A program made the position numbers and the translations under genes. From Promethearchaeota archaeon (lineage in GTDB: Archaea > Asgardarchaeota > Lokiarchaeia > Sigyniarchaeales > SOKP01), in contig JAUWGH010000007.1 of assembly GCA_030606485.1 (NCBI GenBank), positions 1-32,000 on the forward strand: a stretch of 32,000 nt of DNA, given 5' to 3'. Shown here piece after piece: positions 8,314-14,223 of the stretch (its first letter is position 1; each line of letters opens with the position of its first letter). The notes under the pieces were generated by a model. The model searched no databases. It was not told the DNA's origin and saw only the letters and a program-made list of their open reading frames with translations.

Positions 8314-9315
8314 TTATTCGAATTTTGAGCTTGTAATGATATTTATAGAATTTATTAATTGTTCTGTGATATCATTAGTTCCAATTATTTCTAATATCGA
8401 AAATATTATATTTCGTGCTTCCCCCATTACTGGAATTCCACCAAATGTTAAAGGAAATAAAGCAACAAAAGAAACATTTTGTATATTTGATTCTTTTGTA
8501 ATTTCATCAGAAAACTGTAATTTTCCAGAATGACATGCTAAAATTCCATAAAAGGATTCAGAATTTTGCCCAGAAATACATATATATGATAAGAGTCTTC
8601 CCAAAGCAATATCTTGAGCTTCCTCTAACATTTTTTGGAAACCAACATTTGCATTTGCTGAGAAGGCTTCTATTGTTAAGGGTAAAGATTGGTCAGATAC
8701 ATCTCTTGCATCTAAAGTTAAACCAGAAAGATTAACCAAACTATATCTAGAAAAAACCGGATTTTTAATTGAATCTAAAATCTTTCCTATTGCTTGTAGC
8801 TTCTCTAAGTTCTTGTAATTATCACTATTATATGAAGTAAAAGAAATTTCTGTTCCCATTGAAAATAAATAAATTGCACTGCGAACTTTATTAGAGAATT
8901 CTTCTAAATCCTTTTCTGAATTGGGAAATCCACCAAAAAAATTACCAATTTCTCTTTTTAAGTGATATGTACTGCTTGCAAGATTATCAGGATCTAAGGG
9001 CCATTCGCCTTTATAGTTATGCACTATAGTTAATAATGTTTGATTTATTCTAATTGTAATTATACAAACTTTTTCAAAAAAAGAAAAGGAAATTATCTGG
9101 TCTTTAATTCCTAAATCATTCCAATTTTCTTCACTTGCAGAAAAAGCTATTGAAGCAAGGCCAGTAATTATATTAGCATCAAAATTAAGGTCACTTTTTC
9201 TGCCTATGTGAGCGATTGATAATCCATTTTCATCACACAATATTACCATCAAAGTTTCTTTTGAAGATCTTAAAATAGCTGTTAAATATTTAATTAACGA
9301 CTCTCTAATACTCAT
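8314..9315 (-). CDS. Tandem Roadblock/LC7-like domain protein
   Basis: Two similar units, VILCDENGLSIAHI...IITGLASIAFSASEENWNDL and YSLVNLSGLTLDA...AFSANANVGFQKMLEE, matching the Roadblock helix-strand pattern. Confidence 0.7.
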   Translation of the reverse strand: MSIRESLIKYLTAILRSSKETLMVILCDENGLSIAHIGRKSDLNFDANIITGLASIAFSASEENWNDLGIKDQIISFSFFEKVCIITIRINQTLLTIVHNYKGEWPLDPDNLASSTYHLKREIGNFFGGFPNSEKDLEEFSNKVRSAIYLFSMGTEISFTSYNSDNYKNLEKLQAIGKILDSIKNPVFSRYSLVNLSGLTLDARDVSDQSLPLTIEAFSANANVGFQKMLEEAQDIALGRLLSYICISGQNSESFYGILACHSGKLQFSDEITKESNIQNVSFVALFPLTFGGIPVMGEARNIIFSILEIIGTNDITEQLINSINIITSSKFE

Positions 9316-9564: not shown

Positions 9565-9740
9565 ATTTTTCAAATTATAATTATAATCCTATGATATTAT
9601 ATAGAAAATAATTTTTTCATTAAAATATTAATATTATGATAATTTTTGATTTGTTTTTTTTATTTTAAGAAAAAACCTCATAAATAAATTTTAATTTCAT
9701 TATTAATATTTTTCTATAAATTAATTAAAAAAAATTTTTT

Positions 9741-9834
9741 GCTCTCGTAGTGTAGCTCGGCCAAACTTTAAAACTGAGGCTAAGCATGCTAGGCTTTCAC
9801 CCTGGTGACCCGGGTTCGAATCCCGGCGAGAGCA
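9741..9834 (+). tRNA. tRNA-Glu(UUC) with a 19-nt D-loop intron (9765-9783)
   Basis: GCTCTCG/CGAGAGC acceptor stem, CTAGG CT TTC AC CCTGG anticodon arm, TTCGAAT T-loop. Relaxed BHB: GGCC/GGCT helix, bulges AA|A and AA|G. Confidence 0.95.
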
Positions 9835-10027
9835 TAAAAATATTATTCTTTAATCCTTATTATTTAAAAAAATCGAAAATTATTGCAGCTTTTGGTTACT
9901 TACAAATGTTAGTGATATAATTTTGATTTTATCAAAGAACAATGAAGATTCTTTATTTAAAGTTATAATTAAATTTAAAAATTATTTTCTATCATTGAAT
10001 TTTATAACCAAATCTCTCTCTCTTTTT

Positions 10028-10919
10028 GGGTGGATGCAAAATTCAGTGATGATTGGAATTTTAACTTAAACTTTAGATAAAAATTTAATAAATTCCTTAA
10101 ATTCATTACAGTATGAGTAAAAACAACATTAAAGAACATTGGAATTTAATAGCATTAGAATATCAGAAGAAAAGAAAGTTATCATTTGATGATATTGAAT
10201 ACGCTCCAGGTTATGCAAGGGAGTCTGAACTTAATCTGCTTGGGGATGTTGAAGAAAAAAGAATTGTAGAATTAGGATGTGGAGCCGCTGAAAACTCTAT
10301 TACTTTAGCAAAGAAAGGAGGTATTTGTACAGGAGTTGATATATCTTTAGAACAATTGAAATATGCTAAAAATTTAATAATAGAAAATAAAGTTAAAATT
10401 GAGTTAATAGAAGGTGATATAGAGAATTTAATAATGATCGATGATGATATATTTGATATAGCAATATCTACTTTCGCATTAGATTGGATGCAAGATTTGA
10501 ATGCGGCATTTAAGGAAGCTTATAGAATTTTAAAACCGAATGGTATTTTCGTGTTTAGTATGCAACACCCGATTTACAACCTTCTTGGTGCAGAGGATCT
10601 TGATCTTAAGGAGCTTAAAATATCGGTAAGCTATTTTGAAAAAGAAGTGACATTTGTAGAGTCTACAGGAATAGATCTTAGAGTTCACGCATCAAAAATT
10701 AGTGATATCATCAATGGATTAATCAGGATTGGCTTCAATATAGAAAACATACTTGAGCCTAAACCATTGGAAAGAGATGTCATCCCTCACGAGGAATGGT
10801 ATCAAGAAATAATAGAAATGATTCCTTCAACCTTAATTTGTAAGGTATTAAAAGTTCCAAAATAGAGTAAAAAATAATTTCTTAATTGATATATCCATCA
10901 CTGAATTTTGTTACCACCC
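10028..10919. mobile_element. Non-autonomous 892-bp transposon-like cassette with a passenger methyltransferase
   Basis: TIRs GGGTGGATGCAAAATTCAGTGATG (10028-10051) and, reverse-complemented, GGGTGGTAACAAAATTCAGTGATG (10896-10919), 21/24 identical. Direct repeat CTCTTTTT at 10020-10027 and 10920-10927. No transposase inside. Confidence 0.85.
10113..10865 (+). CDS. Class I SAM-dependent methyltransferase
   Basis: IVELGCGAAEN (motif I), TGVDIS, IEGDIENL, FDIAISTFALDW, RILKPNGIFVFS. Confidence 0.93.
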   Translation: MSKNNIKEHWNLIALEYQKKRKLSFDDIEYAPGYARESELNLLGDVEEKRIVELGCGAAENSITLAKKGGICTGVDISLEQLKYAKNLIIENKVKIELIEGDIENLIMIDDDIFDIAISTFALDWMQDLNAAFKEAYRILKPNGIFVFSMQHPIYNLLGAEDLDLKELKISVSYFEKEVTFVESTGIDLRVHASKISDIINGLIRIGFNIENILEPKPLERDVIPHEEWYQEIIEMIPSTLICKVLKVPK

Positions 10920-11013
10920 CTCTTTTTTCATTTAAATAGTTTCAATTTATAATTTTTTTAATTCAAGTTATTCAATAAAATAAAATTTGTAAAAATTGAC
11001 ATATTGATGTAAA

Positions 11014-13482
11014 ATGAGTGAAATTAGCGGAAATATATTTAGAGATACTAAAAGTGATAAAAAATGTGAAAAGAAATCAGATACTTCGAAAGAAGTTAGT
11101 GATAACTATGTTTCATATGAGGAATTTATGAAAACCGTTAAAAAAACGAGAATTTTGCCGTATTCTTATAAAAAGTTTCCACATTTTGATGAAAGATCTC
11201 CAGAACAACTAATAGAAGATATAGAAGCAGGTAAAAAGAAAGTTAAGATTGAAACTGAGCAGACTTTTGATATACACTCTGGTGTTCTTAATGTAGATAA
11301 GGCTGAAGAAAGTAACAAACACGTTTCTTATGAGGATTTTTTAAGAAGGGTTAAAAAAACCACAATAACACCTCTCTCTACAGAGAGTTTGCCAAATTTT
11401 GAAATGAAACTACAAGAACAAATCATTATAGATGGTATTGGTGTTAAAAAGAAAGTTAAAGGCGATAATAAAAATCTATTAGTATTTAAATCTAAAAATG
11501 ATTCAGAAAAAATTGATAAGACCTCAGAAAAAGTAGAAAATAAAACAAAAAAAGAGCCTATTAAAAATAGTGATGTAAAAGTAAAAGAGGAAAAATCAAA
11601 AGTTGAAGAGGAGAAGAGAAAAGAGACTTCAAAATCTTCAGAAGAAATTTTGGAAGAAAAGAAAAAATCCAAAGATATTAACCGAGAACGAAAAGAACAA
11701 AAAAAAGTTAAGGAAAAGGAAAGTAAGAAAAGTGAAGAAATAAAGGAAAAAAAATCAAAAAATATAGATACAAAAAATAAGCGAGATATTTCAAGCGAAA
11801 AAAAGAAAATTAGTGAACCCAAGAAAGAGAAGGAGAAAGAGATTGAGAAAAAGAAAGTGACGAAGGAACATTTAGAAAAGCACAAAGAAATTAAAGATAT
11901 TACAAATAAAATTAATGATTTAGAAAAACGACGAAACAACAATAACAATTTAATTGATCATAGTAAAAAGAAATCACAAGAGGGAATTTTTAACGGAATT
12001 ATAACGCGTGAAGGATACGAAAAAAAATTCAGAGAATTAACAAAAGAAAACGCACAAATTGAGAAACAATTAAGAGAATTTAACGATAATTCTTCACACT
12101 CTGAAAGATTAAACAATGAAAAATTAAGAGTGAAAAAAGGAGAGGTATTAGAAAAGAAAATTACTGAGCTGAAACAAAAACAAAAAAACGAAGAATTGAA
12201 AGAACAAGAGCAAATTTCAAAGGAAAAGGCTAAAGAATTAAAAAACCTACTTTCTAACCAAGAGAAACAAGAGCAAAAAAAGCAAGAATTGAATGGAAGC
12301 GAAAACATATCAAATAAAGATAACTCGGATTTTAAAAAGGTAAAAAATAATGAAAAAATAGAGAATAAGATGACTTCGGAAACGATTGAAAAAAGGAGAG
12401 ATGTAAATATAAAGCAAGAGGAAAACAAGAAAGAAACCCTTACAGATAAGGTTTCAAATGAATTTTTAGAACCAAAGAAAGAATTTGAACAGTCTTATGG
12501 ATATATTTATAAAGCAACAAACACAGTAAATGGAAAAGTATATATTGGACAAACTACAAGAAAAAAATTGGAAAAAAGATGGAAAGAACACATAAAAGAG
12601 GCTAAAGATAAGAGTTATAGTTCTACACATTTGCAAAATAGTATTAGAAAATATGGGGAAAAGGCATTTTCTATTAAAAAAATTGATACTGCAAATAATC
12701 AAAAAGAATTAGATGGGAAAGAAAAGGATTGGATTAAGAAATATAATTCAATGAATCCCAAAAAAGGTTATAATATGAGAGATGGTGGAGAAGGCGGAAA
12801 ATTACGACCAGAAGTAAAAGAAAAAATAAAAAAATCTATGGAAGAGAAGTGGAAAGACCCAGAACATCAACGAAAAGTAAGTAAAGCAGTGAGTAAAGCA
12901 ATGAAAAAGAAGTGGAAACACCCAGAACATCGAGAAAAAGTAATCAACGGAGTGAGTAAAGGAATGAAAAAGAAGTGGAAAGATAAAAAATATCAAAAAG
13001 ATCAGAGAAAAGTAAGAGAATCTCCCGAATTTAAAGAAAAACATAGTATGTCAATGGTAAATAAGTGGAAAGATCCAGAACATCGAGAAAATGTGAGTAA
13101 AGGGGTGGAAAAGAGGTGGAAAGATAAAGAATATCAAAAAAAGCAGAAAAAAGTAAGAGAATCTCCCGAATTTAAAGAAAAGATGCGTAAAGCATCGAAA
13201 AAAAGGTGGAAAGATAAAGAAATATCTAATATGAAAGATTTTCTAACTGATATAAAAAATTTGATCCTAAAGAAGGATTTAGAAAAAAAATATAACATCA
13301 CTGGTCCAACAATAAATAGTAAAATAAAAGATATATTAGGTCCAAATGGCCCAAAAAATTATAGAGAAGCAAAACAATTTCTTAAAGATAGAGATATTGA
13401 TAACATTTTAAAGATTTTAAAAACAAAAAAAAATAAAAAGCAAAATAAAAAAAAGCGCCCCAGACATGGATCGAACATGTGA
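11014..13482 (+). CDS. Large GIY-YIG endonuclease-domain protein with K/E-rich N-terminus and helical C-terminal repeats
   Basis: YGYIYKATNTVNGKVYIGQTT...RWKEH...LQNSIRKYG...E...KGYNMRDGGEGG, followed by repeated KWKDPEHREK/KWKDKEYQ units reminiscent of NUMOD3-type DNA-binding repeats. Confidence 0.88.
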   Translation: MSEISGNIFRDTKSDKKCEKKSDTSKEVSDNYVSYEEFMKTVKKTRILPYSYKKFPHFDERSPEQLIEDIEAGKKKVKIETEQTFDIHSGVLNVDKAEESNKHVSYEDFLRRVKKTTITPLSTESLPNFEMKLQEQIIIDGIGVKKKVKGDNKNLLVFKSKNDSEKIDKTSEKVENKTKKEPIKNSDVKVKEEKSKVEEEKRKETSKSSEEILEEKKKSKDINRERKEQKKVKEKESKKSEEIKEKKSKNIDTKNKRDISSEKKKISEPKKEKEKEIEKKKVTKEHLEKHKEIKDITNKINDLEKRRNNNNNLIDHSKKKSQEGIFNGIITREGYEKKFRELTKENAQIEKQLREFNDNSSHSERLNNEKLRVKKGEVLEKKITELKQKQKNEELKEQEQISKEKAKELKNLLSNQEKQEQKKQELNGSENISNKDNSDFKKVKNNEKIENKMTSETIEKRRDVNIKQEENKKETLTDKVSNEFLEPKKEFEQSYGYIYKATNTVNGKVYIGQTTRKKLEKRWKEHIKEAKDKSYSSTHLQNSIRKYGEKAFSIKKIDTANNQKELDGKEKDWIKKYNSMNPKKGYNMRDGGEGGKLRPEVKEKIKKSMEEKWKDPEHQRKVSKAVSKAMKKKWKHPEHREKVINGVSKGMKKKWKDKKYQKDQRKVRESPEFKEKHSMSMVNKWKDPEHRENVSKGVEKRWKDKEYQKKQKKVRESPEFKEKMRKASKKRWKDKEISNMKDFLTDIKNLILKKDLEKKYNITGPTINSKIKDILGPNGPKNYREAKQFLKDRDIDNILKILKTKKNKKQNKKKRPRHGSNM
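12847..13220 (+). repeat. Coding tandem repeats in the GIY-YIG protein C-terminus
   Basis: Several copies of (A/G)GTGGAAAGA(T/C). The stretch AAAGTAAGAGAATCTCCCGAATTTAAAGAAAA (KVRESPEFKEK) is duplicated. Confidence 0.85.
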
Positions 13483-13695: not shown

Positions 13696-14223
13696 TTATT
13701 TTTCAAGAGACGCATAGTAAATCAACCATTTTGCCATTGCTTGAAATGATTCATTAATATTTAATTCCATCTTTGAGGAAGTAAAAACAGATTGATTACA
13801 TTTGGCTTGTTCAGCGTATTTTTGAGCAGTTTCAATATCAATTTCATGATTAGGTAGATCCCATTTCATTCCTAATAAAATAATTGGAATAAAACCAGCG
13901 GTTTTTCTAATGATTGTTAACCATTCCGGTAGCTGCCTAAAAGTATCATAATCAGTGACATCAAAACAAATAAAAGCACCACTTGCTCCCTTACAATAAT
14001 CAGATAATAAACTTCTAAACCTTTCCTCTCCTGCAAAATCCCATAGCTGCATTTTGCATTGTTCACCTGTATCTAATTTCTCTTCTTTAGTATAAAATGC
14101 AGCCCCGATTGTCATCTTATGATCTTCTATAAATTTCCCAGTACAATATCTTGTAACCAGTGCTGTTTTTCCCACACCACCAGAACCAGCTACTATCACT
14201 TTAAATATCCATGAAATTGACAT
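13696..14223 (-). CDS. Rab-like small GTPase (Ras superfamily)
   Basis: GSGGVGKT (G1), MTIGAAF (G2), LWDFAGEERFRSL (G3), GMKWDL (G4 variant), TSSK (G5). No C-terminal Cys prenylation motif. Confidence 0.93.
   Translation of the reverse strand: MSISWIFKVIVAGSGGVGKTALVTRYCTGKFIEDHKMTIGAAFYTKEEKLDTGEQCKMQLWDFAGEERFRSLLSDYCKGASGAFICFDVTDYDTFRQLPEWLTIIRKTAGFIPIILLGMKWDLPNHEIDIETAQKYAEQAKCNQSVFTSSKMELNINESFQAMAKWLIYYASLEK

Follow-up and report, generated by a model that had tools for sequence, protein, structure and literature searches.

Passenger genes enclosed by the ends of an insertion sequence (IS), with the transposase left to another element, are a known kind of mobile DNA, the mobile insertion cassette (MIC; defined in PMC3129680). 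The closest described system is MIC231 of Bacillus cereus, which in the account given in PMC2266710 is mobilized in trans by the transposase of IS231A (Chen et al., 1999; De Palmenaer et al., 2004). As related there, IS231 generates target duplications of 10-12 bp (PMC2266710, table 1), and IS231A chooses its sites through a target consensus together with DNA bending (Hallet et al., 1994; PMC2266710). The methyltransferase cassette described here resembles MIC231 in having IS-type inverted-repeat ends around a passenger gene without a transposase, in a target duplication of the same length as that of its partner IS, and in belonging to a family in which MITEs and full IS copies coexist. It differs in its Asgard host, in a partner with an unclassified zinc-ribbon DDE transposase that is not of the IS4/IS231 type, in a duplication of 8 bp as against 10-12 bp for IS231 (PMC2266710), and in its oriented insertion beside a TATA-box-like motif; moreover, trans-mobilization was demonstrated for MIC231, whereas for the Asgard cassette we infer it. 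The kind of element is therefore known, and what is new is the Asgard host, the unclassified partner and the oriented TATA-like target. Our literature search turned up no description of mobile insertion cassettes or of MITEs from Asgard archaea, Lokiarchaeota included. The Asgard archaea are the lineage thought to have given rise to eukaryotes.

The window, by which we mean the whole stretch of 32,000 nucleotides that was analyzed, contains the following features of the cassette and its site.

10028-10919: methyltransferase cassette, 893 bp, transposase-free and non-autonomous
10020-10027, no strand: left copy of the 8-bp target-site duplication, CTCTTTTT, read directly from the sequence
10028-10051, plus strand: left 24-nt terminal inverted repeat (beginning GGGTGGATGC), from the sequence and a shuffle test
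10084-10091, plus strand: TATA-like box of the cargo gene itself, TTTAATAA, placed 21 nt upstream of the ATG, read directly
10113-10865, plus strand: passenger gene, a class I SAM-dependent methyltransferase of 250 aa, by Pfam Methyltransf_11
10896-10919, minus strand: right 24-nt terminal inverted repeat (beginning GGGTGGTAAC on the minus strand), from the sequence and a shuffle test
10920-10927, no strand: right copy of the 8-bp target-site duplication, CTCTTTTT, read directly from the sequence
10928-10938, minus strand: target motif outside the element, reading on the minus strand TATTTAAA-TGA and then the duplicated AAAAAGAG
9894-10013, no strand: older, degenerate MITE of about 120 bp from the same family, by end-to-end alignment with the 121-bp MITE of genome G019
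Target-site sequence of the element family: TATTTAAAGAAAAAA

An earlier note on this DNA had described 24-bp terminal inverted repeats beginning GGGTGG, a perfect 8-bp duplication and a single intact class I methyltransferase between them, and on rereading each of these holds. The two 24-nt arms both begin with GGGTGG and are complementary at 21 of 24 positions; with up to three mismatches, the left arm matches the window at these two positions and nowhere else, where 100 shuffles predict 0.00 matches. In 61 related genomes, the arm pattern was matched 44 times and the reversed control pattern not at all, and the left 24-mer also ends cassette copies in G002 (0 mismatches), G001 and G027. Within the cassette, the sole full-length-spanning open reading frame (ORF) of at least 50 aa encodes the Methyltransf_11 protein (PF08241, 80 bits against a cut-off of 21.2; PF13649, 68.6 bits against 27), and there is no transposase. 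IS-like terminal repeats, the absence of an internal transposase, a duplication of the partner's length and movement to other sites, all of which define MICs, are found together, and window 10028-10919 is thus supported as a non-autonomous DNA transposon of the MIC type. We regard it as very probable that the whole is explained by such a cassette, inserted in trans by the transposase of an IS of about 1.63 kb and directed to a TATA-like motif.

Evidence for movement comes from comparison of the window's genome (G000, 13 contigs) with three congeners (G001, G002 and G003), a genome of a different genus (G027) and metagenomes. The 893-bp cassette is present in G001 (98.5% identical, duplication TTTATTTT), in G002 (98.6%, AAAAAATA) and in G027 (96%, flanking octamers AGGTTTTG/AGGTTTTT), and at these loci the alignment with the window is confined to the element. 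Two further sites lie in cold-seep/sediment metagenome contigs, from runs X10 (perfect duplication AAATTTGG) and X15, bringing the total to six different insertion sites with flanking 8-bp duplications that differ by site. The window locus itself is represented by five empty-site alleles: in G001:C27, G002:C75 and G003:C355 the window flanks are contiguous around a single CTCTTTTT-type octamer, and the contigs of X10 and X15 omit 904 and 932 nt exactly at the element borders. Over the 9.7 kb left of the element, identity to the window is 98% for G003, 93% for G001, 92% for G002 and about 70% for G027. Since the cassette is 96-98.6% identical between genomes that are themselves 70-98% identical, it has spread laterally or very recently; and since G003, the closest relative by these flanks, is without the cassette altogether, the insertion in the window is recent and postdates the split from the closest sequenced relative. 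The age that the earlier note had proposed, fairly recent, is thereby borne out, as is its suspicion of a mobile insertion cassette, for which six sites, five empty alleles and elements with a matching transposase now speak. Searches along the lines that it had suggested returned what was sought: for the repeat, two more cassettes in the same genome, with MITEs, cassettes and full IS copies in relatives; for an empty site, the single-octamer alleles of the three congeners and two metagenome runs; and for an autonomous partner, ten to eleven independent elements of about 1.63 kb with the same 24-nt ends. None of the three findings that it had listed as contrary to its reading (no other copy of the repeat, no matching transposase, no empty allele) was made.

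The first hint of the partner IS was that contigs of G002 and G003 break off 117-140 nt inside identical ends, a sign of a multi-copy element, and reading inward from these ends led to a transposase-like ORF. Complete copies are present in G032, G003, G027 and G206 and on seven metagenome/MAG contigs, the latter found by exact-protein look-ups. They measure 1.61-1.64 kb and combine ends of the 24-nt cassette type with a single transposase reading frame. Copies in G032, G027, G206 and on the seven contigs have perfect 8-bp duplications, and that of G003:C275 is imperfect; the transposase ORF is intact in G003:C275 (376-1845) and in the seven contigs, and the copy in G032 has two in-frame stops. 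In G027, where a transposase copy lies on C6, cassette and intact transposase reside in one genome. The transposase is 470-490 aa long, with an invariant CxxC...CxxC zinc ribbon and invariant D206, D265 and E392, the last within TNNxxE and 127 residues from D265; for the N-terminal ribbon the sole match was a weak one to DUF6431.

Assigning this transposase to a described family is less straightforward. Among 18 aligned members, all 18 matched the IS66 model (NF033517), at 30 bits against a cut-off of 180, and 17 matched the IS6 model (NF033587), at 41 bits against 125 and over the core only (residues 167-265); the element, at 1.63 kb, is also at odds with the IS6 size of about 0.8 kb. The ISL3 model (NF033550) gave 19 bits against 180, and the ISH6 model (NF041731) gave 31 bits against 240 in a second subfamily, P0001. 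The likeness to single-ORF, ISBst12-like IS66 elements lies in a model alignment over nearly the entire protein (residues 73-392, aligned with positions 17-334 of the 387 in the model). IS66 elements make 8-bp duplications, and their ends typically open with GTAA. By comparison, the Asgard element falls short of the IS66 cut-off (30 bits against 180) and of that of PF03050 (15-20 bits against 23.1), is without TnpA/TnpB accessory ORFs, and has ends that open with GGGTGG or GATTGG. IS256 elements, for their part, make duplications of 8-9 bp, and in their transposases a large helical insertion separates the second D from the E. An AlphaFold model of the Asgard transposase (mean pLDDT 70.5) found its best Foldseek matches in chains of the IS256-family ISCth4 (PDB 6xg8; E 1.8e-10, probability 1.0, TM 0.40-0.47), which suggests a catalytic fold of the Mutator/IS256 type; a single ORF and short inverted repeats are further likenesses. 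The sequence models of IS256 nevertheless fail, with 28 bits against 150 (NF033543) and 17.5 against 21 (Transposase_mut, PF00872), both in subfamily P0001 only, and the Asgard transposase carries its N-terminal CxxC...CxxC zinc ribbon. Searching the PDB by sequence with the transposase profile yielded no meaningful match (best E 0.17). The partner IS thus passes no curated IS family cut-off, and its predicted fold is IS256-like; by analogy with IS256, its transposase may follow a copy-out/paste-in chemistry. The family is unclassified by NCBIfam and Pfam models but may already carry a name in ISfinder.

Its distribution is narrow. A feature search placed it in the neighborhood of IS66, IS6, IS256 and ISL3, in clusters that are mostly from Promethearchaeota, and its homologs, from sediment metagenomes and MAGs with a Promethearchaeota or Odinarchaeota label, are for the most part unnamed and, where named, mostly called 'hypothetical protein'. 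Across 301 genomes from the phylum, a search recovered the gene from 15 of 68 members of the window's family, from one of seven in a sister family and from none of those searched in other families, so that, as found in this set, the IS family is confined to the window's Asgard family and one sister family. As the family models provide no name for it, genome annotation misses it. The second subfamily, P0001 (485 aa, 27-30% identical to the main type), is represented by an element at about 2942-4608 of L054 (G003:C519), which has related ends (CAAATGTTAG core), uses the common TATA-like target and is inserted 8 bp from a 542-bp cassette with a 141-aa ORF. We also considered that the transposase might be expressed from the flanking host TATA-like box, by promoter capture, and set the idea aside: in eight independent full-element 5' regions, a TTTAAA/TTTATA about 24 nt before the transposase ATG is conserved inside the element, and an external promoter is not required. 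At L081 (JGI contig Ga0374083_1352479, 1440-3915), a full IS sits between a TATA-like box and the start of a 271-aa Methyltransf_11 gene, 35 nt upstream of the gene; that box may be the promoter of the gene, now displaced by 1.6 kb.

Target choice was examined by aligning the outer flanks of all unique element ends (n = 82). The consensus is one-sided, TATTTAAA-KAA-AAAAANNN, and the duplicated octamer opens with AAAA(A). Of the 82 ends, 41 have a TATA-like hexamer 2-4 nt from the duplication, against 3.7% of random genome positions, and 31 have the strict TTTAAA hexamer, against 0.85%; half of the ends is the proportion expected if each insertion bears the motif on one side only. In every complete IS (10-11 of 10-11) this is the side on which the transposase starts, and insertion is therefore oriented as well as site-specific, 10-11 nt from a TATA-box-like motif, which is new here. 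Empty sites already have the motif, and since insertion does not disrupt it, later elements can re-use it and elements stack. Its survival accounts for elements that abut with an 8-bp gap in G002:C249, G227:C64 and G003:C519, and likewise for the window, where the TATA-like box (10931-10938) is followed by one copy of the duplication, the cassette, the other copy, a (CT)n expansion and the old MITE, the cassette having entered between the motif and the older element, 14 bp from the end of the MITE. That MITE (9894-10013) is present in the empty-site alleles too and is hence older than the cassette. IS231A-type directed insertion is similar in its strong target consensus within intrinsically bendable, A/T-rich DNA; the present family differs in its archaeal TATA-box-like sequence with an A-tract at a fixed offset of 10-11 nt, in the fixed orientation of the transposase-proximal end, and in a target that survives and permits stacking.

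What recognizes this motif can be read more or less boldly. The safest reading is a sequence- or shape-specific site in intergenic DNA. A bolder one, which we consider rather unlikely though worth stating, is that the transposase targets a transcription-initiation site (a TBP/TFB-bound or TATA-shaped promoter), in fixed orientation and 10-11 nt away. The motif resembles an archaeal TATA box preceded by an A-rich stretch. As regards its direction, start codons reading away from the element were found about 20-90 nt from the box in 12-13 of 20 events, and in eight of 20 one that reads through the element lies downstream. The genome has only 59 occurrences of the strict motif, and their distances to start codons show no peak; no consensus could be drawn from the sequences upstream of 38 tRNA genes, which are too rich in A and T, and the flanks of TTTAAA hexamers before ORFs had no clear BRE-like asymmetry. 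The yeast element Ty3, which uses TFIIIB for targeting, offers a loose parallel, and a literature search for IS targeting TATA boxes in archaea found nothing. If initiation complexes were indeed recognized, a prokaryotic transposon would be choosing its target in a new way, one that might be put to use for placing insertions next to promoters; the motif would then be a reusable landing pad where single-gene cassettes, MITEs and IS copies accumulate, and Asgard archaea would have a means of acquiring genes beside promoters and of exchanging them between genera.

Together these observations suggest how the cassette may have arrived. A DDE transposase, supplied in trans by the 1.63-kb IS, would have inserted it by cutting, with an 8-bp stagger, an A-rich octamer lying 2-3 nt from the TATA-box-like motif; the octamer would be duplicated and the motif kept intact and available to later elements. 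The common ends, duplication length and target motif point to this trans-mobilization. Two observations count against it. Both ends of the cassette are like the transposase-proximal end of the full element, instead of one being of each type. The 13 contigs of the window's genome, searched with tblastn and by genome search, hold no intact transposase and only a relic (G000:C1:315985-316166), whose two fragments are 80% and 69% identical to the main-type transposase P0002 over 35 and 29 residues and are without recognizable ends. The copy that acted has since been lost or was not assembled, and the cassette is stranded in this genome unless a transposase re-enters.

Three other explanations were weighed against this one. 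That the repeats are chance or regulatory sequence around a resident, vertically inherited methyltransferase gene, with nothing mobile, might seem attractive in DNA of 29% G+C, where short direct repeats rich in A and T, CTCTTTTT among them, are common, and in a region for which many low-quality inverted repeats were reported; yet chance arm matches are absent from the shuffles and the reversed control is empty across 61 genomes, the cassette occupies six loci with its own duplication at each, and the orthologous locus is empty in three congeners, so that we give the idea practically no credence and regard it as already refuted. Movement by site-specific or homologous recombination, as in integron-like capture or MITE-MITE exchange, in place of DDE transposition, is scarcely more credible and in our judgment very improbable. 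It could draw on the older MITE of the same family that adjoins the cassette, on the tRNA gene 190 bp away and on the frequency with which elements of the family abut one another, but re-use of the target motif, which survives insertion, accounts for this adjacency, and at G001, G002 and G027 the bases adjoining the cassette are no element end. New sites, moreover, have different 8-bp duplications directly at the ends, the signature of staggered-cut transposition, and there is no associated recombinase.

The remaining alternative keeps transposition and changes its agent: a transposase other than the 489-aa type, from the second subfamily or an unrelated IS, would mobilize the cassette. This we consider improbable, though distinctly less so than recombination. 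Subfamily P0001 has related ends and the common target motif, and a perfect end match to the cassette is found in neither subfamily; the closest ends (GGGTGG..CAAAAT.CAGTGAT.), however, flank elements of the P0002/P0003 type in G002 and G003, and as both subfamilies form one family, the kind of explanation would be unchanged.

The cassette is one member of a varied set, in which the duplication length of 8 bp is common to cassettes, MITEs and IS copies. At least eight copies of the 121-bp MITE lie in G019; their ends are the same, and the 8-bp duplications of most are perfect. Other cassettes carry an ArsR-like HTH membrane protein (G024, duplication AAAAATGT), a PNPOx-like protein (G019), or three genes in 3.5 kb that include an alpha/beta hydrolase (G024). 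A permissive end search of the window's own genome (up to seven mismatches) amounted to noise, with 439 matches against 221 for the reversed control, and only three own-genome end pairs, with matching duplications, were retained. Of the two additional cassettes in this genome, that at G000:C10:819146-819895 encodes a 189-aa NADPH-dependent FMN reductase between decayed ends, with a duplication matching at seven of eight positions. That at G000:C3:22083-23226 encodes a 257-aa multi-pass membrane protein, and its left end abuts a TATA-like motif; no matching duplication was found at this site, and versions of the same cassette at two other congener loci have perfect duplications. A lineage-restricted IS family is thereby defined in three forms, namely autonomous copies, 120-bp MITEs and cassettes of varied cargo, and the methyltransferase cassette shows in detail, from occupied and empty sites, how a single gene moves within and between Asgard genera.

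The cargo gene is intact in every copy, with dN/dS of 0.16-0.28 against diverged copies, and is therefore a working gene that is able to become fixed. The diverged copies (90% and 80% nucleotide identity; L082 and L085) reside in decayed cassettes, one of which retains the target motif and a recognizable left end. Spread between genera and a dN/dS of about 0.2 suggest a selected function for the 250-aa methyltransferase, whose nearest solved chains, 3g5l and 3bkw, are putative, uncharacterized SAM methyltransferases. The TATA-like box at 10084-10091 probably serves as the promoter of the gene: it is conserved in both decayed copies, and TTTAAA-to-ATG distances in the window's genome peak at 15-30 nt. 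A source for the cassette was sought in the methyltransferase beside the full element on L081 and rejected, as the two proteins are unrelated (26% identity over 82 residues).

The neighborhood of the site has features of its own. The tRNA-Ala(GGC) gene upstream of the cassette (9740-9835) is 96 nt long and must contain an intron. Downstream, 76 nt past the TATA-like box, begins an ORF of 822 aa (11014-13482) without a Pfam match, which contains internal direct repeats 213 nt apart (e.g., 11092-11153 and 11305-11366) and has several partial paralogs, 79-84% identical, on other contigs of the congeners. Farther out, on the minus strand, are genes for a Roadblock/LC7-like (MAPKK1_Int) protein (8314-9315) and a Ras-family small GTPase (13696-14223), eukaryote-like signature genes that are consistent with the Asgard origin of the window.
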